The position numbers and the translations under genes are program-made. Shown in pieces: positions 5,254 through 64,000 of a DNA stretch of 64,000 nucleotides. The notes below the pieces were generated by a model. The model was not told where the DNA came from. It searched no databases and saw only the letters and a program-made list of their open reading frames with translations. Numbering within the stretch: the first letter of the stretch is position 1; the number at the start of each line of letters is the position of its first letter. This DNA comes from Candidatus Aminicenantales bacterium (GTDB lineage Bacteria; Acidobacteriota; Aminicenantia; Aminicenantales; UBA4085), in assembly GCA_049515535.1 (NCBI GenBank), contig JBEKTZ010000002.1, positions 147,467 to 211,466 of the forward strand, written 5' to 3'.

Positions 5254-8085
5254 ATGTCGTTCCTAAAAAAGATCATCGTCTTGACGGTCGCCCTGGTCCT
5301 TGCCGTATCGCTCGTCTCGGCCCAGGGAAATATCACTTCCCCGAAACAGCAATTCGGATTCAATGTCGGCGACGACTATCAGCTCATCAATTATACCCAG
5401 CTCCTCGCCTATTGGAAAAAGCTGGACAAGGAATCCGACCGGATATCGCTCGTCAACATCGGCACCTCTTCCGAAGGCCGACCGATGATCATGGCCATCA
5501 TTACCGCGCCCAAGAACCAGGGCAAACTCGAGTTCTATAAGCAGATCGCCAAGAAGCTTGCCCTGGCCAAGGGCCTGACGCAGGCCGAAGCGAAGAAACT
5601 GGCGGCCGAGGGGAAAGCGGTCGTCTGGATCGACGGCGGCCTCCACGCGTCGGAGATCGTCGGCTCCCAGCAGATCATCGAGCTCGTCTATCAGATGGCC
5701 AGCGGCAAGGACGCCGAAACGCTCAGAATCCTCGACGACGTCATCCTTCTCGCGGTCCCGGTCAACCCCGACGGCCTTGAGCTCGTCGCCAACTGGTACA
5801 TGCGGGAAAAGGATTTGCTGAAAAGGACGATGAGCGGCCTCCCCCGGCTTTACCAGAAATACGTCGGGCACGACAACAACCGCGATTATTATATGATCAA
5901 CCAGCCGGAAACCGAGGTCGTCAGTCGCCAGCTCTATATCGAATGGCACCCGCAGTTCCTGTATAACCACCACCAGGCCGGTCCGGCCGGGACGGTCTTG
6001 TTCTGCCCGCCGTTCCGCGATCCCTTTTACTACTATTTCGATCCCCTGGTCCCCGTCGGAACAGACCTCCTGGGATTGGCCATGCACGAGAGATTCGCGG
6101 TCGAGAACAAGCCCGGCGCCATCATGCGCTCGGGGGCGAGCTACTCCACCTGGTGGAACGGCGGACTCCGCAGCACGGGCTACTTCCATAACGTCATCGG
6201 GATCCTGACGGAGATCATCGGAAATCCCACACCCATGGACATCCCGTTCATACCCGACCGGGTGTTGCCCAAAGGCGACTACCCCTTCCCGATCATGCCC
6301 CAGAAATGGCACATGCGCCAATCGATAGATTATTCGATCACGGCCGATAAGGCGATCCTCGACTTCGCCTCGCGCCGGCGCGAGGAAATTCTCTACAACC
6401 GCTACGTCATGGGGAAAAACGCCATCGAAAAGGGCAGCCGCGACACGTGGACGTTCGAGCCCCTGCAGATCGCCGCGCTCCAAGCCCAAATCGAGAAAGA
6501 CCGGGCGGCGACCGCGGCCTCCGCGCCCGCTTCCGGAACTCCTCCCGCCCAGGGCCCGGCCGGGATGAGGGGCGGGGGAAGCGTGAATCTCAAATATTTC
6601 GACATGCTCAAAGACCCGGCCAAGCGCGACCCGCGCGGCTATATCATTTCCTCCGATCAGCCGGATTTTCCGACGGCTACCAAATTCGTGAACACGCTGA
6701 TCAAAAGCGGCATCGTCGCGCACCGGGCGACAAAGCCGTTCACGGTCGGGACAAAGACCTATCCCGCGGGGTCCTACGTCGTCAAAACCGCTCAGGCCTT
6801 CCGCGCCCATATCATCAGTATGTTCGAGCCGCAAGATCATCCCAACGACTTCGCCTACCCCGGCGGCCCCCCGCGCCCGCCCTATGACAGCGCCGGATGG
6901 ACCGTGGCGTTTCAAATGGGCATCCAGTTCGACCGCATCTTGGACGGCTTCGACGGCCCTTTCCAAGAGATCCAAGGCTTGGCCAAGCCGCCGGCCGGGA
7001 CGTATCCGACGGCGAACGCCAAGACCGCGGCCGGCTTCTTCGTCAGCCACCAGGTCAACGATTCGTTCATCCTGATCAACCGGCTCCTGAAGAATAACGA
7101 AGAGATCTACTGGATGAAAAAGCCGTTCACGGCCATGGGCAAAACGTTCCCGGCCGGAACGATGTACGTTCCCGCCAAGCCATCCGTCCTTCCCGTCCTC
7201 GAAAAAACGGCAAAGGAACTCGGCCTGAACATCGAGGCGGCGGACCTCAAGCCGATCGGAGAAGCTTTTCGGCTGAAGCCTCTGCGCCTGGGTCTCTGGG
7301 ACAATTACGGAGGCTCCATGGACTCGGGCTGGGTCCAGTGGATCCTCACCCGGTTTGAGTTTCCGTTCGAAGTCATCTATGCGCCAACCCTTGACGCCGG
7401 CGATCTTACGGCGAAATACGACGTCTTGATCTTTGTCGGCGGCGCCATCCCCGGCCTATTCCCGGGCGGGGGTCGGGGCGGAGCCGGCGGCTTTGGCCAG
7501 CTCAATCCGGATAATGTCCCTCCGGAATTCCGTTCAATGATCGGCCGGATCACAGTGGACAAGACGATCCCCCAGATCAAGAAATTCATGGAAGACGGAG
7601 GCGCGGTCCTGACCATCGGCAGCTCGACCGGCCTGGGCTATCACCTGGGACTTCCGATGGCGAATCACCTGGTCGAGATCACGCCGGATGGGAAAGAAGC
7701 TAACGTGGGTCAACAGAAATTTTATGTGCCGGGTTCCGTCCTTCAGGTCCGCGTGGACAATTCCCTGCCGCTGGCTTACGGGATGCCGGATTCGGTGGAT
7801 GTTTTCTTCGACAACAGCCCGGTTTTCGATCTGACTCCCGACGCCGGATTGAAAGGCGCGCAGGCCGTAGCCTGGTTTGAAAACGCCAATCCCCTCCGGA
7901 GCGGATGGGTTTGGGGAGACCAGTACCTTCGTCGCGGCGTCGAGGTCATCGCCTCTCCGGTCGGCAAAGGAAAATTGTTCCTTTTCGGCCCCGAAATCAC
8001 GTTCCGCGGACAGCCGCACGGAACTTTCAAGTTCCTCTTCAACGGGATTTATTTCGGAAGCGCGGAAACGGTCAGTTTGAATTAA
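5254..8085 (+). CDS. M14-family zinc carboxypeptidase, large secreted form with C-terminal GATase-like domain
   Basis: Signal peptide; IDGGLHASE, PVNPDG, GHDNNRD and NHHQ motifs. Confidence 0.88.
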   Translation: MSFLKKIIVLTVALVLAVSLVSAQGNITSPKQQFGFNVGDDYQLINYTQLLAYWKKLDKESDRISLVNIGTSSEGRPMIMAIITAPKNQGKLEFYKQIAKKLALAKGLTQAEAKKLAAEGKAVVWIDGGLHASEIVGSQQIIELVYQMASGKDAETLRILDDVILLAVPVNPDGLELVANWYMREKDLLKRTMSGLPRLYQKYVGHDNNRDYYMINQPETEVVSRQLYIEWHPQFLYNHHQAGPAGTVLFCPPFRDPFYYYFDPLVPVGTDLLGLAMHERFAVENKPGAIMRSGASYSTWWNGGLRSTGYFHNVIGILTEIIGNPTPMDIPFIPDRVLPKGDYPFPIMPQKWHMRQSIDYSITADKAILDFASRRREEILYNRYVMGKNAIEKGSRDTWTFEPLQIAALQAQIEKDRAATAASAPASGTPPAQGPAGMRGGGSVNLKYFDMLKDPAKRDPRGYIISSDQPDFPTATKFVNTLIKSGIVAHRATKPFTVGTKTYPAGSYVVKTAQAFRAHIISMFEPQDHPNDFAYPGGPPRPPYDSAGWTVAFQMGIQFDRILDGFDGPFQEIQGLAKPPAGTYPTANAKTAAGFFVSHQVNDSFILINRLLKNNEEIYWMKKPFTAMGKTFPAGTMYVPAKPSVLPVLEKTAKELGLNIEAADLKPIGEAFRLKPLRLGLWDNYGGSMDSGWVQWILTRFEFPFEVIYAPTLDAGDLTAKYDVLIFVGGAIPGLFPGGGRGGAGGFGQLNPDNVPPEFRSMIGRITVDKTIPQIKKFMEDGGAVLTIGSSTGLGYHLGLPMANHLVEITPDGKEANVGQQKFYVPGSVLQVRVDNSLPLAYGMPDSVDVFFDNSPVFDLTPDAGLKGAQAVAWFENANPLRSGWVWGDQYLRRGVEVIASPVGKGKLFLFGPEITFRGQPHGTFKFLFNGIYFGSAETVSLN

Positions 8086-8094
8086 ATTCCATAG

Positions 8095-8145
8095 AAATCC
8101 CCCTTCATACCCCTTTGAGAAAACGGGATGAAGGGGGATTTTTTT
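8095..8145. terminator. Intrinsic terminator between convergent genes
   Basis: AAATCCCCCTTCAT-N19-ATGAAGGGGGATTT perfect 14-bp stem followed by a T run. Confidence 0.75.
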
Positions 8146-45904: not shown

Positions 45905-48118
45905 ATGGGCAGCTCCATCAAAGCGCGCTCTAAGATCGTCCTGGCTGCGCTTTTATGGCTTGGCGTGGGGTTGCCTCTCTTTGCCTATATCGGGCCGGGC
46001 GCCGGATTCGCTTTCCTGTCCTCGTTTCTCGTCCTGTTTCTGACATTTATCCTCGCCGTCTTTTCTTTTCTCTCCTGGCCGTTCCGCTTCTTTTTTCGCC
46101 TGATTCGAGGCGGCAAGGCCTACAAGAAAAGCCGCACGGACCAGGTCGTCATCATCGGCCTGGACGGTCTCGCGCCCGAATTGGCCGAGAAATTCATGGC
46201 CGAGGGCAAACTCCCCAATCTGGCAAAGCTGAAAAAAGAAGGCTTTTACGCCCGGCTCCAAACGACGACGCCGGCCATTTCTCCCGTCGCCTGGTCTTCC
46301 TTCATGACGGGTTCCAACCCTTCCAAACACAACATCTTCGATTTTTTGAGCAGGGACCCGAGGACATATCTGCCCGATCTGTCCTCCGCCCGCATCGGCC
46401 CCCCAAAAAAAACGCTTTCCATCGGCAAATATAAAATCCCGCTTTCCAAGGCCGAGATCCGGGGAATGCGAAAAAGCGTCCCATTTTGGAAGATCCTCGG
46501 AGACCATGGGATTTTCAGCACCATCCTGAGGGTGCCGATCACATTCCCGCCCGAGAAATTCAAAGGGCATTTGCTTTCCGGGATGTGCACGCCCGACCTC
46601 AAAGGCAGCCAGGGGACATTCTCCTTTTATACGTCCGACCCGGCCAAAATCCAGAAGCGCGAAGGCGGCATCGCGATTCCGATCGAGGTCAAAAACGATC
46701 GCGTGGAAACGTTCATTTCGGGTCCCGAAAATACCATGCTGAAGGAACCCAAGGAAATCCGCCTTCCCCTGACGATCGTGATCGACCGCCTGAAGGATGA
46801 AGCGCGGATCGAAACGGCGGGACGGAAACTCACGCTCAAGAAAAATGTCTTCTCGCCGTGGACAAGAATCACCTTCCGGCCGGGTCTGGGCTTCAAGATC
46901 AAATCCATATGCCGCTTCTATGTCTCCCAGATCTCGCCTCATTTTGAGATGTACGTCACTCCGCTCAACATCGATCCGGAAAAGCCCGCCCTGCCGATCT
47001 CCCATCCCTTCATCTATTCCGTGTATCTGGCCAAACTCCTGGGCAGCTTCATCACTCTGGGCGAAGCCAACGATACCTGGGCCTTGAACGAAAACGCGCT
47101 CAGTGAAAGCGCGTTTTTGGACTTGACCTATTCCAATCACAAGGAATGGGAAGGGATGTTGTTCAACGCCCTGGACAAGACAAAAAAGGGCCTTGTCGTC
47201 TGCGTCTTCGAGACGACGGACAGCATTTCCCACATGTTCTGGCGTTATCTGGACAAAGCCCATCCGGCCCTGAAAAAAGGGCCGTCTGCTTTGGGGCCTC
47301 AGGTCATCGAAGATCTCTTCGTCAAGATGGACGAAATGATCGGGCGCGTCAGGGAAAAAATGTCCGCCGAAAGCGCGCTTTTCATCATGTCCGATCACGG
47401 TTTCAAGTCGTTCCGCCGCGGCGTCAATGTGAACGCCTGGCTTCACAAAAACGGCTATCTGTTTTTGAAAGGCGAAAAAACCGAATCCGGGGAATGGTTC
47501 AAGGACGTGGATTGGAAAAGAACCAAGGCCTACGGCTTGGGACTGGGCGGATTGTATATCAATCAGAAGAACCGCGAGGCCGAGGGTATCGTCGACTCCG
47601 ATCAGGAGGCCAAAGCCCTGCGGGCCGAGCTTCTCCGGAGGCTCAGCGGTTTGAAAGACGAGCAAAATGGAGAGGTCGCGATCAACCGCGTCTATGACCG
47701 GGACGAAATCTATTCCGGCCCATATAAAGATAACGCGCCCGATCTGATCATCGGTTACAATGCCGGCTATCGGGCCTCTTGGGAAGGCGTCGCCGGGATC
47801 GTAAAAGACGCGATTTTCGAGGATAACGTCAAAGCCTGGAGCGGAGACCATTGTATCGACCCGCCGTGCGTTCCCGGCGTGCTTTTCTCGAGCCTCAAAC
47901 TGGGCGTCAAGGGACGAGCCTTCGCGGCGGAAATTGACCCGCGGGCAAAGCCCGGGGCCCCGTCCGCCGTCGAGACGCCTTCGATCATGGATATCGCCCC
48001 AACCGTGCTCGAGCTTTTCGGCCTTGAACCGCCGGCCCATATGGACGGCCGCTCGCTGCTCGAAAAAAAACTCCCGTCCGGATCCTCTCGGCCGCAAGAA
48101 AGAGAGAAGCCAAAGTGA
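45905..48118 (+). CDS. NPP-type phosphodiesterase 2, membrane anchored, with in-frame repeat insertion
   Basis: N-terminal hydrophobic segments; IGLDG, PAISPVAW, TDSISH, SDHGF and GDH motifs. Confidence 0.88.
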   Translation: MGSSIKARSKIVLAALLWLGVGLPLFAYIGPGAGFAFLSSFLVLFLTFILAVFSFLSWPFRFFFRLIRGGKAYKKSRTDQVVIIGLDGLAPELAEKFMAEGKLPNLAKLKKEGFYARLQTTTPAISPVAWSSFMTGSNPSKHNIFDFLSRDPRTYLPDLSSARIGPPKKTLSIGKYKIPLSKAEIRGMRKSVPFWKILGDHGIFSTILRVPITFPPEKFKGHLLSGMCTPDLKGSQGTFSFYTSDPAKIQKREGGIAIPIEVKNDRVETFISGPENTMLKEPKEIRLPLTIVIDRLKDEARIETAGRKLTLKKNVFSPWTRITFRPGLGFKIKSICRFYVSQISPHFEMYVTPLNIDPEKPALPISHPFIYSVYLAKLLGSFITLGEANDTWALNENALSESAFLDLTYSNHKEWEGMLFNALDKTKKGLVVCVFETTDSISHMFWRYLDKAHPALKKGPSALGPQVIEDLFVKMDEMIGRVREKMSAESALFIMSDHGFKSFRRGVNVNAWLHKNGYLFLKGEKTESGEWFKDVDWKRTKAYGLGLGGLYINQKNREAEGIVDSDQEAKALRAELLRRLSGLKDEQNGEVAINRVYDRDEIYSGPYKDNAPDLIIGYNAGYRASWEGVAGIVKDAIFEDNVKAWSGDHCIDPPCVPGVLFSSLKLGVKGRAFAAEIDPRAKPGAPSAVETPSIMDIAPTVLELFGLEPPAHMDGRSLLEKKLPSGSSRPQEREKPK
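47906..47974 (+). repeat. In-frame palindromic element, short copy (69 bp)
   Basis: 62/69 identical to the two flanking blocks of 63210-63103(-). Encodes VKGRAFAAEIDPRAKPGAPSAVE. Confidence 0.85.
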
Positions 48119-50112
48119 ACGATCCCATCAGCCGCCGGAATTTTCTCAAATCGAGCCTTGGCGCCGCTTCTCTTATGGCCATGGGACCCCGGCCTTCTTG
48201 GGTAACGAAAGCCTACGGCAAAAAGGCGACGGCCCGTAAAGTCGTCATTCTCGGCTTTGACGGTATGGATCCCCGTATGACCGGAGCCTGGATGAAAGAC
48301 GGAAAGCTTCCCGCTTTTCAAAAATTGATGGGCCAGGGAGGTTTCCGTCCGCTCGGGACGAGCATCCCGCCGCAGAGCCCCGTGGCCTGGTCGAACTTCA
48401 TTGCCGGCACGAACCCGGGCGGCCACGGGATTTTCGACTTCATCCACCGCGACGCGAAGCGCTACCTTCCCGTTTTCTCGGCGTCGGCCACCGAAGAGAC
48501 GACGAAGACGATCCGCATCGGAAATACGCTTTTCCCGGTCAAGGGAGGGACCGTCAAAAACCTGAGGAAAGGAAAAGCCTTTTGGCAGGTCCTCGAAGAA
48601 CACGACATTCCCGCGACGGTCTTTAAGATTCCGGCGAACTACCCGCCCGTTCCTTCGAAACAAAGGACGATTTCCGGAATGGGGACGCCGGACATCGTCG
48701 GCAGTTACGGCTTGTTCCGCTACTACACCACCGAGCCCAAGGATATTAAAGAGGACATCGGCGGGGGCGAGGTCCGCCAGGTCTATGTCATCAACCATCG
48801 GATCGAGGCCAAGCTTCCAGGGCCCGTCAATGCATTCAAGAAAGACCGCCCCGAAGCCGAGATCGATTTCAAGGTCTTCATCGATCCGCAGAATCCCGTG
48901 GCCAAGATCGTCATCCAGGACCAGGAATTCATCCTCCGCGAAAAAGAGTGGAGCGGGTGGAAACGCGTCCGTTTCCATCTCATCCCGACCCAGGGCGTGA
49001 GCGGCATCTGCCTTTTTTATCTCAAAGAGGTCCGGCCGAATTTCAAGCTCTATATTTCTCCGATCAATATCGATCCGGGCGATCCGGCCCTGCCCATATC
49101 GACGCCGGCCTCCTATGCCGAAGAACTCGCCGGAAAATTCGGGCCCTTTTTCACGAAAGGCCTTCCGGCCGATACCAGCGCCCTCGATAACGATGTCCTG
49201 GACGAGGGGGAATTTCTCCAGCAGGACGATGTTGTCCTTCAAGAAAGCCGGACCATGCTGGATTATGAGCTCGCCCGTTTCGATTCCGGTTTGCTCTTCT
49301 ATTACATATCGAGCACGGACCAGCGCCAGCACATGTTCTGGCGCCTTTTGGACGACAAGCATCCGTTGCATGACGCCGCATTGGCCAAAAAATACGGAAG
49401 CGTGATCGAGGACACATACCGGGAGGCGGACCAGATCCTTGATCATGTCATGGGAAAAGTCGGCAAGGACGCGCTCATTCTGGTCATGTCCGACCATGGG
49501 TTCAATCCATTTTACCGGAGCTTCAACCTCAATACATGGCTTCGCCAAAACGGCTATTTGAAGCTCGCTAACGAGTTCAAAGAAGAAGACCTGGATCTGG
49601 CTTTCGCCGGAACCGATTGGTCCAGGACCAAAGCCTTCGGCGTGGGATTGAACGGCCTTTACATCAATCAGAAGGGCCGGGAGGCTGAGGGCATCGTTCC
49701 GGCCGGCCGCGAAAAAGAGAGCCTCGTCCGCGAAATCGCGGCGAAACTCGAAGAATTCGTTGATCCTAAAACGGGCGATAAGATCATCCGGAGGGCCTAC
49801 GTGGCTCAAGACGTTTATTCGGGGCCTTATGTCGACGAGGCACCGGAAATCATCCTCGGCTTCAACCGCGGCTATCGCATTTCCAATAAGTCGCCCCTGG
49901 GCCGCGTCCCAAGGGAGGTGGTCGAGGACAATCGGGCCAAATGGAGCGGAGACCACATGGGGGCCGCTGAGATCCTGCCCGGCATCCTGCTGGCCAACCA
50001 GCCGATCAAGGCCGAAGCGCCGGCGCTCACCGACCTGACGGCAACGATCATGGATGTCTTCGGCATCGAAAAACCGAAAGCCATGATCGGGACGACCATC
50101 TTCAAGGAGTGA
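48115..50112 (+). CDS. NPP-type phosphodiesterase 3, Tat-exported
   Basis: GTG start; SRRNFLK twin-arginine signal; GFDG, PPQSPVAW, TDQRQH, SDHGF and GDH motifs. Confidence 0.88.
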   Translation: MNDPISRRNFLKSSLGAASLMAMGPRPSWVTKAYGKKATARKVVILGFDGMDPRMTGAWMKDGKLPAFQKLMGQGGFRPLGTSIPPQSPVAWSNFIAGTNPGGHGIFDFIHRDAKRYLPVFSASATEETTKTIRIGNTLFPVKGGTVKNLRKGKAFWQVLEEHDIPATVFKIPANYPPVPSKQRTISGMGTPDIVGSYGLFRYYTTEPKDIKEDIGGGEVRQVYVINHRIEAKLPGPVNAFKKDRPEAEIDFKVFIDPQNPVAKIVIQDQEFILREKEWSGWKRVRFHLIPTQGVSGICLFYLKEVRPNFKLYISPINIDPGDPALPISTPASYAEELAGKFGPFFTKGLPADTSALDNDVLDEGEFLQQDDVVLQESRTMLDYELARFDSGLLFYYISSTDQRQHMFWRLLDDKHPLHDAALAKKYGSVIEDTYREADQILDHVMGKVGKDALILVMSDHGFNPFYRSFNLNTWLRQNGYLKLANEFKEEDLDLAFAGTDWSRTKAFGVGLNGLYINQKGREAEGIVPAGREKESLVREIAAKLEEFVDPKTGDKIIRRAYVAQDVYSGPYVDEAPEIILGFNRGYRISNKSPLGRVPREVVEDNRAKWSGDHMGAAEILPGILLANQPIKAEAPALTDLTATIMDVFGIEKPKAMIGTTIFKE

Positions 50113-58881: not shown

Positions 58882-59676
58882 TCAATCCTCGAAGATATAT
58901 TCTTTCCTGGAAAAGACCAGGCAGGCCAAGCAGAGAAAAACGACCGTAAGGACGAGGAGCGTCACTATGGCCACGGCTGGATGACTGGGTTCCAGGTTGA
59001 ACTTTAGAAAAGAAATCTTTCCGTCATCCGAAGACATCGCGGGCAGCAAAGATTTCAAGTAATGTATGATCGTAAATTTTTGTGTTGAGCCCGGAAAATA
59101 CTGGACGACGTTCTCCCATCCAAAACTGAAAAACAGGCCGAAAATGACGGCCCTTTTGAAGAACGTCCCCAGAAATGTGAAGAAGGCCGTATAACAGAAG
59201 AGGCCGGTGACCAACACGCCCATGCTTCGAAAAAGCATCGTCCAGGCGGACGGCTCGGAGATCTGGCCGATGTGGAGAATCAGGAAAGACACGACGATGC
59301 CGGCGGCCATGGCGCCTATGAGGAAGGCCATATAAGCCGCATACTTGCCCAGGATGATAGCGGATTTCGAGACAGGCCGGGTCGTCAGGTAGGTCAGCGT
59401 CTTTCCTTCCAGTTCCTCCGAACAAATCGATGTCCCATAGAAAAGGGCCAGCATGAGGATCAGGAATTGCAGGTAGAAGCTCATGATGATGTTGAGAAAA
59501 ACGGACGGACCGTCGATGAGAGCGCCTCTGGAGAAGATCTGGTTGAGCTGAAGAACGAGCGAAATCGCCACGGGCAGGCAGCCGATGAGGAAAAAAGCCT
59601 TGGTCCGGCGCGCCCTGCGCCCGATAAAAAAGAACAGCGAGAAAATGGAGCGCACAGCGTTTCGGGTCATCGTCAT
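58882..59676 (-). CDS. ABC-2 type transporter permease
   Basis: EELEGKTLTYLTTRPVSK...GKY motif; 6 TM segments. Confidence 0.88.
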   Translation of the reverse strand: MTMTRNAVRSIFSLFFFIGRRARRTKAFFLIGCLPVAISLVLQLNQIFSRGALIDGPSVFLNIIMSFYLQFLILMLALFYGTSICSEELEGKTLTYLTTRPVSKSAIILGKYAAYMAFLIGAMAAGIVVSFLILHIGQISEPSAWTMLFRSMGVLVTGLFCYTAFFTFLGTFFKRAVIFGLFFSFGWENVVQYFPGSTQKFTIIHYLKSLLPAMSSDDGKISFLKFNLEPSHPAVAIVTLLVLTVVFLCLACLVFSRKEYIFED

Positions 59677-60599
59677 TTTCCTATGAGATAATCGAAAACC
59701 GCTTGAAGATTGTCGTCGGGCGACGTGATCTCCTCGACGTCGATGTCGCCGTCGACGATCAGGCGGGGCAAGAGCTCGAAGAATTTATCGCGGTTCCGCG
59801 TCTCGAAGACGACCGTATCCGGCGCCGCGCCGAACCGGATATCCATGACCGATGGCTCTTCGACCAGGCGGGCGGCCAAACCGCGGGCCTCGCTGCATCT
59901 CACGGAGACCATGTGGGGATGCTGATCGATCAGATCGCGGATGTAGTGAATGTCGCCCTGGGCCAAGATTTTCCCCTGATGGAGAAGGATGATCGTCCGC
60001 GTCAGGGCTTCGATCTCGGGCAGGACATGGCTCGAAATGACCACGGTCTTTCCAGCGTCCTTTTGATCCTTGAGCATCCGGATGACCTTGCGCTTGCTCA
60101 GAGGATCCAGCCCGTTCAACGGCTCATCGAGGATGATGATCTCCGGGTCGTGGGCCACGGCTTGGGCCACCTTAAGCCTCTGCCGCATGCCGCGGCTATA
60201 GCCCCTGACCAACCGATCTTTGTCTTTATAAAGCTCGACGAAATCGAGCGCTTGTTTCGCCTTGGATTCAATCTCGCAGCGCGAAAACGAGTACAGACGC
60301 AACAGGCTCGTCAAAAACTCCCAACCCGTCATCCCTTCGTAGAAAGCGTCCTGTTCCGGGCAAAATCCGATCGACGCGAATATCCGGGAATTGTTCCAGA
60401 TATTCTCGCCGCGAATGGAGGCCCATCCGATGCTCGGCTTTATCTGTCCCGTGATGAGCTTCAGCAGCGTGGATTTTCCGGCCCCATTCGGGCCGAGAAG
60501 CCCGGTGATCCCCGGCTCGATCTCGAGCGAGACGTCGGACAGGCCGAGGATGTTGCCGTACCATTTGCTGAGCCTTTGCGTCCGGATGACGGCCGTCAC
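59673..60599 (-). CDS. ABC transporter ATP-binding protein
   Basis: GTG start; GPNGAGKST, YSRGMRQR and LDEP motifs. Confidence 0.92.
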   Translation of the reverse strand: MTAVIRTQRLSKWYGNILGLSDVSLEIEPGITGLLGPNGAGKSTLLKLITGQIKPSIGWASIRGENIWNNSRIFASIGFCPEQDAFYEGMTGWEFLTSLLRLYSFSRCEIESKAKQALDFVELYKDKDRLVRGYSRGMRQRLKVAQAVAHDPEIIILDEPLNGLDPLSKRKVIRMLKDQKDAGKTVVISSHVLPEIEALTRTIILLHQGKILAQGDIHYIRDLIDQHPHMVSVRCSEARGLAARLVEEPSVMDIRFGAAPDTVVFETRNRDKFFELLPRLIVDGDIDVEEITSPDDNLQAVFDYLIGK

Positions 60600-61486
60600 C
60601 GAATCACCTCGACGCTCCGTATTTTTTTTATCAGCACGAAGCCGGACAGGCCGCAGACGGCGGCGAGGATGATCAGGGAATAGAACCACGGAACATTGTA
60701 AAGAGGCCTGACCCGGAAAAGAAACGCGCCGATTTGTTGGAGGTTGCCGTGGATCGAGAACAGCGCGAAATACGGACTTCTGAAACTCAAGTAAAAAATA
60801 CCGAAACAGATATCCGAGAGGATATAGATCAGAATCATGAAAATAGAGACAAAAAGACGGCTCCGGCTGAGGCAGGAAACAAGGAGCGTGTAAAAGGCGA
60901 AGAAGATCGAGAAAAGGAAGGAGCAGGCGATCACGGACAGGGGAAGCCAAGGATAGTCCGTCAGAAATTTAAAGCTTCCGGAAAGGACGAGCTTAGCGAT
61001 GATGAAAAGGAGGCCGGGCACGAGGGTCATGGTCAGTAGGAAGAACAGGACCGTCGAAATTTTTCCCAGAAAATAATCCCGTCTGCGGAGCGGCCTGGAA
61101 AAATAGAGCTGAAGGGAATTGTTTTTCAAATCGTCGGTCATGAGCCAGGCGCCGCTGGGGATCAAGGCGATGATGATCAGAAGCAAGATAAACCAGCTCG
61201 TGAAATAGTCCTTGAACCTTTCCGGGCTGGCCTGGATGGCCGTCAGAACCTGGGTCGGCCCCCCCCTCCGGCCTCTGAAAATGGATTGGAAATCCTCGAA
61301 GTGTTCGGAGATATAGATCATCGTGAGAGGGACGACCATCGGAAGGAGCGAAAACAGATAGCTGAAGATGAACAGTTTCCGCTTCAGCGCCTGGCGGATG
61401 CCCCGCCTCGCGATCGGCCACCAGGGAAACCGCCGTTCGACGAAGGTTCCCTGCCAATGGACGTATCCCCGTTCCGAGATCGGCAT
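60596..61486 (-). CDS. ABC-2 type transporter permease
   Basis: DDLKNNSLQLYFSRPLRRRDYFLGK motif; TGATG coupling with the upstream ATPase. Confidence 0.88.
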   Translation of the reverse strand: MPISERGYVHWQGTFVERRFPWWPIARRGIRQALKRKLFIFSYLFSLLPMVVPLTMIYISEHFEDFQSIFRGRRGGPTQVLTAIQASPERFKDYFTSWFILLLIIIALIPSGAWLMTDDLKNNSLQLYFSRPLRRRDYFLGKISTVLFFLLTMTLVPGLLFIIAKLVLSGSFKFLTDYPWLPLSVIACSFLFSIFFAFYTLLVSCLSRSRLFVSIFMILIYILSDICFGIFYLSFRSPYFALFSIHGNLQQIGAFLFRVRPLYNVPWFYSLIILAAVCGLSGFVLIKKIRSVEVIR

Positions 61487-62397
61487 CAATCCACTCCCAC
61501 CGTCTGGGCGAAAAGGTCCTCGAGCGAGGTCCGGCTCTTGACGAAATACCGGATTTGAACATCTTCCCGGACCGCCGCCCGGAAGATCTCGCGGCGAGAA
61601 AGGTTCGCCGGCATATAGATTTTCATGAGCTGTTCTTCGGTCTCTTCAACGCGGCAGCCCAGGTCTTTCAAGACTTGGAGAAACCTCCCGGTCTCCCCCT
61701 TCGTTCTAATCTCATATAGGCTGTATTGAATTTCCTTCAGGGTTTCGAGTTCTCCCTGGGCCGCGACCGCTCCCTTGTTCAGGATGACGACATGCGAACA
61801 GGTGAATTCGATGTCGGTGAGGATGTGAGACGACACGAGGATCTGGATGTCTTTCTTGGAAGAGATGTCTTTGATGAGGTCGAGAATCTCGTTTCGTCCC
61901 TGAGGGTCCAAGTTGCTCGTCGGCTCATCCAGAAAAAGGAGCTTCGGATCGTGGACGAGGGCCTGGGCCAGCTTCAGCCGTTGTTTCATTCCGGCCGAAT
62001 ACGTCTCAAGAGAACGATAGCGCGCCTCACCAAGCCCGACATAAAAAAGGACATCATGAGCCCGTTTCATGGCTTCCTGCCGGGGCATGCCCGAGAGCTC
62101 GCCGAAATAGGCGGTGAATGTCACAGCATCCATTCCTGGGATGAGACAGTCGTCCTCGGGCATGTACCCGACAGACCGGCGGATGAGAAACTGATCCTTT
62201 TGGATGTCATAGCCAAGGACCCGGCCTTCGCCCCGGTCGGGCCGGAGAAAGCCGAGCAGGATCCGGAGGAGCGTGCTTTTGCCCGCGCCGTTCGGACCCA
62301 GGAGTCCGCAGGCGCCTTCGCCGAGGGCAAGGGTCACTCCGTCAAGCGCGGTGATCTTCCCATAATGGAAATGGATATCCTTGAGTTCGATGTTCAT
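61486..62397 (-). CDS. ABC transporter ATP-binding protein
   Basis: GPNGAGKST, YSAGMKQR and LDEP motifs. Confidence 0.92.
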   Translation of the reverse strand: MNIELKDIHFHYGKITALDGVTLALGEGACGLLGPNGAGKSTLLRILLGFLRPDRGEGRVLGYDIQKDQFLIRRSVGYMPEDDCLIPGMDAVTFTAYFGELSGMPRQEAMKRAHDVLFYVGLGEARYRSLETYSAGMKQRLKLAQALVHDPKLLFLDEPTSNLDPQGRNEILDLIKDISSKKDIQILVSSHILTDIEFTCSHVVILNKGAVAAQGELETLKEIQYSLYEIRTKGETGRFLQVLKDLGCRVEETEEQLMKIYMPANLSRREIFRAAVREDVQIRYFVKSRTSLEDLFAQTVGVD

Positions 62398-62415
62398 GAC
62401 AATAAATAATGTTCT

Positions 62416-64000
62416 CTAAGATTTACGAGATTTCATCAATAAAGTTCCAGCCGGCCGGCCCTCGCCGTGGACAAGCGCCCGGTAAGTCTTCTCGATCCGG
62501 TCCCATTTCTCTTCGCGATCGAGCGACCAGTATCGCCCGATGACGGTCGCGACCTCGCCGATGCCGAGCGCCCGGCACGTTTCCTCCACCTTTTCGACAT
62601 AGATCGCGCCGCTCTCGGGCATTTCTCCGCGCCGTCCTATGAAGCCATGGACGTGGACCTTGGTCAAGCCCGCGTCTTTGGCGAGCTTGAGAAGGGCGAA
62701 AAGGTGCCTGATCGTGCCGTGAGAGCTGTAATGGGAAATGATGCCCATAAGATGAAGAGCCCGATGCTCCCGCTTGGCTTTATCCATGACGCCGAGGAAG
62801 GCCTCATTGCGGAAAAAACTCCCGTCCTCGACGGCCTTGTCGATCCGGACGCGATCGAGAAGGACGCGGCGTCCCGCCCCCAAATGAAGGTGGCCGGCTT
62901 CGGAATTCCCGACGGTTCCCGCGGGCAAGCCGACGGCCTCTCCCGAAGCTTGAAGCAGGGACCGGGGGAATCGGGACCATAGGTCGTCGAAGTGCGGCGT
63001 CCTGGATTGCGCGATCAAATTACCGCTTTGAACCGCGCTCATCCCCCATCCGTCCAGAATGAGCACGACGACTTTTTTCCGGATCGGCGCGTGACGAGGC
63101 CGCTCGACAGCGGCTGGGGCCCCGGGCTTTGTCCGGGGGTCCACTTCCGCCGTACTCGCCCGTGGATATAAGCCACAGGCGAGTGGCGAGCCGAAGGCTC
63201 GTCCCTTGACGAAGAGGCTATGTCCCGTCATTTCTGGGGGTTTCGGGATGTCCAGGAGATCGAGAATCGTCGGAGCGACATCGGCCAGTTCGCCGGATTC
63301 GCGCAAATTCGGGTAGGCCGGCTTTCCGGACGCATCATCGGAGAAAATGAACGGCACGGGATTTTTTGTGTGTCCCGTATTGATCGTTCCGTCCTGATAC
63401 TCCCATTCTTCGACCGTCCCGTGATCGGCAGTGACGATCAGAGCGACCGCTCGCCGCCGCGCTTCCTCGATGACGCGCCCCAATTCCTTGTCCACGGTTT
63501 CAACCGCGCGAATGGCCGCTTCTTTGTTTTCGATATGGCCGACGACGTCGACGTTGGCGAAATTGGCCATGACGACATCGAAGCGAGGGTCGCCGATTTT
63601 ATCGATGACGGCGTCCGCCACGGCCGCGGCGCTCATTTCAGGCCTTTGATCGTAGTTGGAAACGTCCTGGGGAGAAGGAACGATCACCCGTTCCTCTCCC
63701 GGAAAAACGGCATCGGACTTGCCGTTCATGAAAAATCCGATATGGGTCGCCTTCTCGGACTCCGCGATCTTGGCCAGACGAAGCCCAGCCTTGGAAAGAA
63801 CTTCGGCCAACGTGTTCTTGATCTTAACGTCCGCGGGGAAGGCGACGCGGACGCGCAGTTTGGGATCGTATTCGATCATGGTCACAAAGTCGAGATCCAG
63901 ACTTTTTTCGACCGGAAAATGAGAAAAGGCCGGATCGATCAGGCATTGGGTGATCTCGATCTCGCGCTCGCCCCGAATGTCGTAAAAAATGACGGAGTCG
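62416..64000 (-). CDS. gpmI: 2,3-bisphosphoglycerate-independent phosphoglycerate mutase, domain-permuted, 5'-truncated
   Basis: Frame is open to the window edge (DSVIFYDIRGER...). Native C-half motifs (ESEK, ANVDVVGH, ADHG, GHT, LADVAPT) precede native N-half motifs (LILDGWG, GNSEAGH, GRYW). Confidence 0.85.
   Translation of the reverse strand, partial: DSVIFYDIRGEREIEITQCLIDPAFSHFPVEKSLDLDFVTMIEYDPKLRVRVAFPADVKIKNTLAEVLSKAGLRLAKIAESEKATHIGFFMNGKSDAVFPGEERVIVPSPQDVSNYDQRPEMSAAAVADAVIDKIGDPRFDVVMANFANVDVVGHIENKEAAIRAVETVDKELGRVIEEARRRAVALIVTADHGTVEEWEYQDGTINTGHTKNPVPFIFSDDASGKPAYPNLRESGELADVAPTILDLLDIPKPPEMTGHSLFVKGRAFGSPLACGLYPRASTAEVDPRTKPGAPAAVERPRHAPIRKKVVVLILDGWGMSAVQSGNLIAQSRTPHFDDLWSRFPRSLLQASGEAVGLPAGTVGNSEAGHLHLGAGRRVLLDRVRIDKAVEDGSFFRNEAFLGVMDKAKREHRALHLMGIISHYSSHGTIRHLFALLKLAKDAGLTKVHVHGFIGRRGEMPESGAIYVEKVEETCRALGIGEVATVIGRYWSLDREEKWDRIEKTYRALVHGEGRPAGTLLMKSRKS
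63103..63210 (-). repeat. In-frame palindromic element, long copy (108 bp, three hairpins)
   Basis: CGAGCC-TTC-GGCTCG, ACTCGCCTGTGG-N7-CCACGGGCGAGT and CCCCGGAC-AAA-GCCCGGGG. Encodes VKGRAFGSPLACGLYPRASTAEVDPRTKPGAPAAVE. Confidence 0.85.

Follow-up and report, generated by a model that had tools for sequence, protein, structure and literature searches.

The 64,000-nucleotide (nt) stretch of DNA analysed here, hereafter the window, comes from Candidatus Aminicenantales bacterium (contig JBEKTZ010000002.1, positions 147,467 to 211,466) and holds at its end the 3′ 1,585 nt of a minus-strand gene (62416..64000) that is a true natural circular permutant of the gene that encodes cofactor-independent phosphoglycerate mutase (iPGM). 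The permuted iPGM is a real and conserved variant of a known enzyme, and apparently an undescribed one, as full-text literature searches on circular permutation combined with iPGM or the alkaline phosphatase superfamily gave no description of it. Judged from its sequence, the gene probably encodes a bacterial two-domain, Mn-dependent iPGM of the same fold and chemistry, with 3-/2-phosphoglycerate likely still being the substrate. iPGM, a textbook enzyme of glycolysis that is also a drug target, depends in its catalysis on the hinge motion of an inserted transferase domain relative to a phosphatase domain that is split. A natural and widespread variant in which the other domain is the split one is a ready-made experiment on chain connectivity, folding and domain closure.

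Swapped halves in a single open frame

The minus-strand frame 63999..62416 runs without interruption through 527 sense codons to a TAA stop (62416-62418). The window part of the gene corresponds to residues 45-571, with the stop, of a full-length database copy, P0001, which places the start codon 132 nt past the window end. When the product was compared with the PDB by phmmer, window-encoded residues 1-265 matched residues 253-511 of the B. stearothermophilus (Bst) iPGM 1EJJ (independent E-value 1e-54), and residues 307-515 matched 1EJJ residues 3-211 (independent E-value 1.7e-61). The whole-sequence E-value against 1EJJ was 6.8e-119, and canonical residues 212-252 alone were left uncovered. 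The order in the window protein is therefore C-half, linker, N-half, stop, well above chance, and the protein is rotated with respect to the canonical collinear order of phosphatase N-part, transferase and phosphatase C-part. A preliminary description, made from the letters of the window, had proposed exactly such an unbroken frame, which the frame itself and the phmmer alignment bear out; the motifs that it quoted (ESEK, NVDVVGH, ADHG, GHT, LDGWG, GNSEAGH and GRYWSLDRE) were all found. The Pfam models Metalloenzyme and iPGM_N each match the window protein as two split stretches, and TIGR01307 reaches 491.6 bits against a cutoff of 330.65, passing solely as the sum of two stretches.

Since the window cuts the gene, the preliminary description had allowed for two architectures, a permutant, for which a start 40-60 codons upstream was expected, and a canonical full-length iPGM with an extra N-half at its end, that is, a 1.5-fold duplication. 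The copy P0001, located on a 367,550-nt contig and 100% identical over all 527 window residues, consists of 571 amino acids (aa) and begins MTDRTFSLGPAIRAAYRAGQEDEALEP / MTDRTFSLGPAIRAAYRAGQEDEALEPIIRVDEKGRPVGRISRG, 44 codons upstream of the window edge, at a stretch that matches canonical positions ~218-252. One chain of iPGM length that starts right past its own end point (canonical ~211-215) amounts to a clean circular permutation. A 92%-identical relative, P0003, is encoded on a Joint Genome Institute contig, L018 (synonymous divergence, dS, ~0.05 from the window gene), where the permuted gene is preceded by an unrelated, divergently oriented open reading frame (ORF) of 159 aa. A tblastn search of L018 with P0001 returned one collinear match only and no second N-half, and the precomputed Pfam order on the L018 product is iPGM_N, Metalloenzyme, Metalloenzyme, iPGM_N. 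Homologues are 489-571 aa long, about the length of a single iPGM. No support was found for the duplication, which the start position of P0001 and the missing upstream N-half in L018 led us to reject as extremely improbable; the permutant was the half of the earlier proposal that stood.

The junction between the two halves called for the same scrutiny, as the segment 63106-63209 is a multi-copy repeat and such places are typical spots of misassembly. The product could in principle be an assembly artefact, two adjoining genes misjoined, or a decaying pseudogene. A stop or frameshift at 63100-63210, named earlier as the sign of two separate genes, was not found there; the zone is an in-frame 102-nt repeat-element insert. 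Repeat-free homologues (P0003, P0004 and over 100 more, with independent samples and assemblers behind them) share the continuous C-then-N frame with a linker of 14-19 aa, and P0002 carries a shorter in-frame version of the same insert. The site is empty in L018 and copies of the element occur elsewhere, so the junction is not a misassembly. The catalytic residues are invariant, and the ratio of non-synonymous to synonymous divergence (dN/dS) between the window gene and L018 is 0.135, a figure with only 23 substitutions behind it. The two-gene, misassembly and pseudogene readings, rejected on the conservation of the swapped order across samples, have hardly any probability left. Both halves thus stand in swapped order in one ORF with no duplicated half flanking them, and this order is kept in independent genomes under purifying selection.

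The path of the chain was traced with residue numbering of the Bst enzyme, checked on the printed alignment; all coordinates are on the minus strand. The protein starts in the middle of the transferase domain (canonical ~218), and what is canonically the second part of the phosphotransferase domain (Bst ~253-310 within the window, 63832..63999, boundaries approximate) is now N-terminal. The chain passes hinge 2 into the C-terminal part of the phosphatase (metal) domain (Bst ~311-509, 63211..63831; canonical 311-511 in the path as a whole) and through a new 51-aa linker (63082..63210) that joins the old C-terminus to the old N-terminus. The old N-terminal part of the phosphatase domain, with Asp12 and the phospho-Ser (Bst 3-76, 62860..63081), follows; hinge 1 then leads to the first part of the phosphotransferase domain (Bst 77-211, 62455..62859), now C-terminal, and the chain ends in a new tail, PAGTLLMKSRKS (62419..62454), of low model confidence. 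The phosphatase domain has become contiguous and the transferase domain split, and both hinge peptides are kept. Two hinges are also present in canonical iPGM (PMC5382265).

Compared with GpmI/GpmM (1EJJ/1O98; TIGR01307; Metalloenzyme and iPGM_N), the window protein has ~41-43% identity over both halves and, by sequence, the same two domains, seven metal ligands, phospho-Ser motif, Arg/Lys/His substrate residues and hinge segments. It differs from them in sequence order, the old termini being joined and the new ones placed in the transferase-domain loop ~211-218, and in several motifs that are discussed below.

An AlphaFold2 model of the protein, built on a 75-sequence alignment, reached a predicted local distance difference test score (pLDDT) of 89.4 and a predicted template modelling score of 0.85. 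Its low-confidence segments are residues 1-3, 311-345 and 566-571 only, with pLDDT below 50 at 311-345. A Foldseek search of the PDB gave 22 matches at E <= 0.001, all of them iPGM structures. The alignments are sequential and extend over ~230-310 columns with target-normalised template modelling scores of 0.38-0.50, that is, across half of the length, and are not decisive on the fold; a sequential aligner cannot superpose permutants, and partial alignments are what a permutant is expected to give. Of the structural check proposed earlier, the confident model and the exclusively iPGM matches came out in favour of the permutant, while alignments of ~300 columns do not settle the fold. Taken together, the modelling strongly implies that the window protein keeps the two-domain iPGM fold.

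Distribution, phylogeny and origin of the permutation

A search for homologues with the same order, also suggested in the preliminary description, was rewarded with over 120 database proteins, and with 100 loci in genomic DNA, that keep C-then-N. The best 120 database matches have 59-92% identity, 521-571 aa and 97-100% query cover in one local alignment, and the named organisms among them are Candidatus Aminicenantes. Another 10 clusters with C-then-N order, at 37-47% identity, came from a library of 50%-identity representatives, their named members being Candidatus Desulfofervidus auxilii, a Pseudomonadota metagenome-assembled genome (MAG) and an Anaerolineales MAG. A scan of GTDB contigs, one genome per species, gave at least 599 matched stretches, of which the best 80 loci were examined; all 80 have the permuted order. 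Their hosts are Anaerolineae and other Chloroflexota, Oscillospiraceae and other Clostridia, Syntrophales, Thermodesulfobacteriota, "Deltaproteobacteria", Thermotogae, Bipolaricaulota and Aminicenantes, with Levilinea saccharolytica KIBI-1 as a cultured carrier. The permuted order was present in each of the 100 extracted loci that carry the family, and ten weaker matches of the first locus scan were canonical-order iPGMs. The permutation is conserved in many anaerobic bacterial lineages. Database names for the permuted proteins are inconsistent ("alkaline phosphatase family protein", "sulfatase-like", "hypothetical"); with such names, and with collinear equivalog models failing, the phosphoglycerate mutase (PGM) step may be missed or mislabelled in metabolic reconstructions of Aminicenantes, Syntrophales, Anaerolineae and gut Oscillospiraceae.

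For phylogenetic analysis, the permuted sequences were rotated to the canonical order and aligned with 130 canonical representatives, and a neighbour-joining tree was computed. Permuted proteins with the motifs GNSEAGH and xSSHG form one clade in 100/100 bootstraps. Two subfamilies are resolved within it, with a mean identity of 40% between them. Subfamily A (bootstrap 100%, mean identity within 59%), to which the window protein belongs, has the loops GIVS[HF][YF]SSHG and GRRGE; it is stand-alone, occurs in Aminicenantes, Syntrophales/Thermodesulfobacteriota and a few Chloroflexota, and is never accompanied by the partner genes of subfamily B. Subfamily B (bootstrap 97%, mean identity within 61%), found in Anaerolineae including Levilinea saccharolytica and in Oscillospiraceae, shares with A the permutation, GNSEAGH, xSSHG and the loss of Asp154. 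It differs from A in its loops (GLLTEKSSHG, and DGRST for GRRGE) and in lying in clusters with HAD, ApgM and PRK-like kinase genes.

The permuted proteins as a whole were monophyletic in 5/100 neighbour-joining bootstraps only. P0140 and P0143 are complete permutants with the same break point and the same C-then-N order as the window protein; unlike it, they have canonical motifs (SDxGVHS, DGRD and GNSE[VI]GH) and are placed outside its clade, elsewhere in the tree. Their position, in a tree of the neighbour-joining type only, suggests a second, possibly independent origin of the permutation at the same loop. A third permuted lineage, represented by P0126, was considered and dropped, as this sequence is cut at both ends on a 1,520-nt contig and its architecture cannot be judged.

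Circular permutants usually arise when a gene is duplicated in tandem, the copies fuse in frame and the outer halves are trimmed away, and the iPGM permutation most plausibly came about in this way, with the outer halves lost. Locus L016 has two tandem canonical iPGM genes (5938-7515 and 7546-8142, the second cut by the contig end) separated by ~30 nt, the first with GNSEAGH, which is the arrangement from which fusion could give a permutant. No fused N-C-N or C-N-C intermediate was present among 268 proteins classified by half order. The linker is 14-19 aa in all permuted homologues but two, P0001, the full-length copy of the window protein (51 aa), and P0002; a length of 14-19 aa roughly equals that of the two native tails, N- and C-terminal, added together, which suggests that the old termini lie close together. 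A precedent among phosphomutases is PGM3, whose phosphoserine loop has been moved in the sequence, and not in three dimensions, by a natural circular permutation (PMC5570346). PGM3 differs in fold and superfamily, and its permutation spans ~60 residues within one domain.

Active site, gene neighbourhoods and function

All seven metal ligands of iPGM, including the catalytic Ser, are kept in P0001 as D360, S410, D236, H237, D195, H199 and H254 (Bst D12, S62, D444, H445, D403, H407 and H462), and they are conserved in 35/35 permuted sequences of the alignment. Metal site 1 is formed by D195 (63547-63549), H199 (63535-63537) and H254 (63370-63372), and metal site 2 includes D236/H237 (63421-63426); D360 lies at 63052-63054. 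The nucleophile motif of the phospho-Ser, GNSEAGH, is present with S410 at 62902-62904. This assignment of the metal sites agrees with that in the C. elegans structure paper (PMC5382265).

The eight substrate-contacting residues are likewise all found in P0001: His66 as H414 (62890-62892), His123 as H471 (62719-62721), Arg153 as R501 (62629-62631), Arg185 as R533 (62533-62535), Arg191 as R539 (62515-62517), Arg261 as R53 (63973-63975), Arg264 as R56 (63964-63966) and Lys336 as K127 (63751-63753). From the papers on 1EJJ and 1O98, we take these to be the residues that bind phosphoglycerate. Among 24 sampled members of the Aminicenantes family, D12, S62, H66, H123, R153, R185, R191, R261, R264, D403, H407, D444, H445 and H462 are present in every one, and K336 in 23. 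The residue alignment confirms what had been noticed from the letters of the window, namely that the metal ligands and the catalytic Ser are retained and the substrate loops changed, SDGGVHS having become SHYSSHG and DGRDV having become GRRGE.

In the mechanism that we propose, the permutant would share the two-domain fold and the chemistry of canonical iPGM: phosphate would be passed to Ser410 on the binuclear metal centre, the substrate, held by the Arg/His/Lys pocket, would reorient, and the phosphate would then be transferred back. With less certainty, the substrate would still be 3-/2-phosphoglycerate, and the enzyme would act in glycolysis and gluconeogenesis of the Aminicenantes-type host.

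In the window, the permuted gene is followed by an ABC-2 transporter cluster of four genes (ATPase, permease, ATPase, permease; 58882..62397, minus strand) that starts 18 nt past the iPGM stop. An ATPase gene lies directly downstream in 11/11 Aminicenantes-type loci (L001-L006 and L017-L021) with a spacing of 15-120 nt, and all four ABC-2 genes are present wherever the contig reaches far enough. The first ATPase is better conserved than the permuted enzyme (70-85% vs 57-66% identity). The gene context in these loci is an ABC-2 transporter and not glycolysis genes. Among other members of the clade, in two Desulfofervidus-like loci (L022 839-8044 and L023 389-6817), a giant ORF of 2,100-2,400 aa, which has a PPDK_N domain and faintly matches P-loop kinases, is overlapped at its 3′ end by the permuted gene. 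In two further loci (L026 2217-8572 and L024 8666-14038), the permuted gene ends a LysR-regulated operon for a phnS2/PhnU2-like ABC importer, or adjoins a gene for a glycerophosphodiester phosphodiesterase (GDPD) and an importer of similar type whose fused permease has 618 aa.

PGM function of the window protein appears rather likely, because the full set of phosphate- and carboxylate-binding residues is kept, conservation is strong, TIGR01307 scores above its cutoff, and P0140, the permutant with canonical motifs, is encoded directly after the glucose-6-phosphate isomerase gene pgi, whose end it overlaps. A changed specificity looks less likely. The explanation that competes with mutase function accepts the permutant as real and takes its clade to be neofunctionalised, the enzyme being an iPGM-derived phosphomutase or phosphatase that acts on another anionic phosphoester with unchanged phospho-Ser and bimetal chemistry, and the true PGM being encoded elsewhere; we regard this as possible, if on the unlikely side.

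A number of observations weigh against an unchanged mutase. Asp154, which is Asp in 125/130 canonical sequences, is Gly in the window protein (G502, 62626-62628), as it is throughout subfamily A, and Ser or Gly across the rest of the clade. This clade-wide loss is accompanied by co-varying change of the two glycerate-side loops of the transferase domain, SDGGVHS and DGRD, which are remodelled in the whole clade (G499-R500-R501-G502-E503 in P0001 vs canonical D-G-R-D-V), and by GNSEAGH in place of GNSEVGH. The collinear equivalog model NF003897 gives 386.8 bits, under its cutoff of 862. The surroundings point the same way. The Aminicenantes gene is always trailed by the ABC-2 transporter, and other clade members adjoin organophosphate-type ABC importers, phnS2/U2-like ones among them, and GDPD, or overlap the giant PPDK_N ORF. 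Subfamily B genes stand in conserved clusters of Anaerolineae and Oscillospiraceae (L029, L032-L040, L044, L047, L049-L053, L056, L062, L064-L066, L068, L071, L073-L074, L077-L079, L081, L084-L085, L087-L090, L092, L094, L096, L098, L102, L104, L107-L108 and L110), with 1-5 tandem HAD hydrolase paralogues upstream. Downstream, in Anaerolineae, are an ApgM-type mutase (560.9 bits vs the equivalog cutoff of 468 of NF003160) and one or two 398-aa kinases resembling PRK/uridine kinase, in the order kinase, mutase, second kinase; Oscillospiraceae loci have the HAD array alone. The Levilinea cluster is further flanked by genes for an aldehyde dehydrogenase (Aldedh), an AP_endonuc_2 TIM-barrel protein, a GFO/IDH/MocA oxidoreductase, an RpiR regulator and a 617-aa fused ABC permease. 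Operons that combine an ApgM-type PGM, HAD proteins and PRK-like kinases suggest that at least subfamily B is not a housekeeping mutase, and its pathway could concern an inositol phosphate or a sugar-acid phosphate.

Neofunctionalisation has to be reconciled with the retention of every known Arg, Lys and His that holds phosphate or carboxylate in the phosphoglycerate site, and with the separateness of subfamily A, which forms a stand-alone clade of its own (100% bootstrap) without HAD, ApgM or kinase partners. In addition, Glu503, right after the lost Asp position, might stand in for the missing carboxylate; a literature search turned up no account of the role of Asp154. The ApgM-type neighbour is not decisive, since it is common for one genome to encode several types of PGM (PMC2964296). 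Searches of the window and of ~0.79 Mb of sampled Aminicenantes DNA, a small sample, gave neither ApgM nor canonical iPGM, and a His-phosphatase probe, cobC-like rather than a proper cofactor-dependent PGM, was likewise without a match in both. The literature on Aminicenantes metabolism yielded no statement on PGM. On balance, we favour the permuted iPGM as a phosphoglycerate mutase. A bolder combination, which we put forward tentatively and with some doubt, is that the Asp154-less clade is a new iPGM-derived family with another substrate, that subfamily B works with ApgM-like mutases, HAD phosphatases and PRK-like kinases in an uncharacterised organophosphate pathway, and that the permutation arose at least twice independently at the same transferase-domain loop. 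Should the clade have a new specificity, the conserved operons with HAD, ApgM and kinase genes would indicate a phosphometabolite pathway not yet described.

A repeat element in the linker

The long linker of the window protein is due to the in-frame insertion of a hairpin-rich repeat element of ~102 nt (63106..63209, no strand assigned), which encodes KGRAFGSPLACGLYPRASTAEVDPRTKPGAPAAVE. L018 shows the empty site for this insert, and a direct repeat, T(C/T)GAC, borders the insertion. Three hairpins make up the fold of the element (-62.5 kcal/mol, z = -4.6), which encodes 34 residues that are disordered in the structure model. These extra residues would derive from a mobile repeat element and be tolerated as a disordered surface loop, and the in-frame element marks the new linker as a permissive insertion site. 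A search of Rfam gave no match in 62300-64000.

A shorter second copy (47905..47980, no strand assigned), which encodes KGRAFAAEIDPRAKPGAPSAVE, sits in frame within the 3′ portion of an ORF of the Phosphodiest family (45905-48118, plus strand). Both copies in the window are thus located in genes of the alkaline phosphatase superfamily, in the same orientation and frame, and encode KGRAF...DPRxKPGAPxAVE. The linker of P0002 carries the same short form as the copy at 47905-47980, and a full copy of the element is intergenic in L018 (4597-4700). The element ranges from 76 to 104 nt in size, and further copies were collected as L111-L179. In GTDB genomes, 69 stretches contain its exact 26-nt core; almost all are from Aminicenantes MAGs, one of which has ~35 of them. 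Counts of long open frames across the copies were not used as coding evidence, as spurious ORFs are common at this G+C content. Like the Rickettsia palindromic elements, the element is short, forms hairpins, exists in multiple copies and occurs in frame within protein genes, at a tolerant place on the surface; unlike them, it resides in another host phylum, and it has no sequence relationship to them.

The ORF that carries the shorter copy is one of two adjoining Phosphodiest (NPP-type) ORFs of the alkaline phosphatase superfamily on the plus strand of the window, 45905-48118 and 48115-50112. The latter has a twin-arginine translocation signal, and the former ends in an iPGM-like DIAPTVLELFGLEPPAHMDGRSLL motif.

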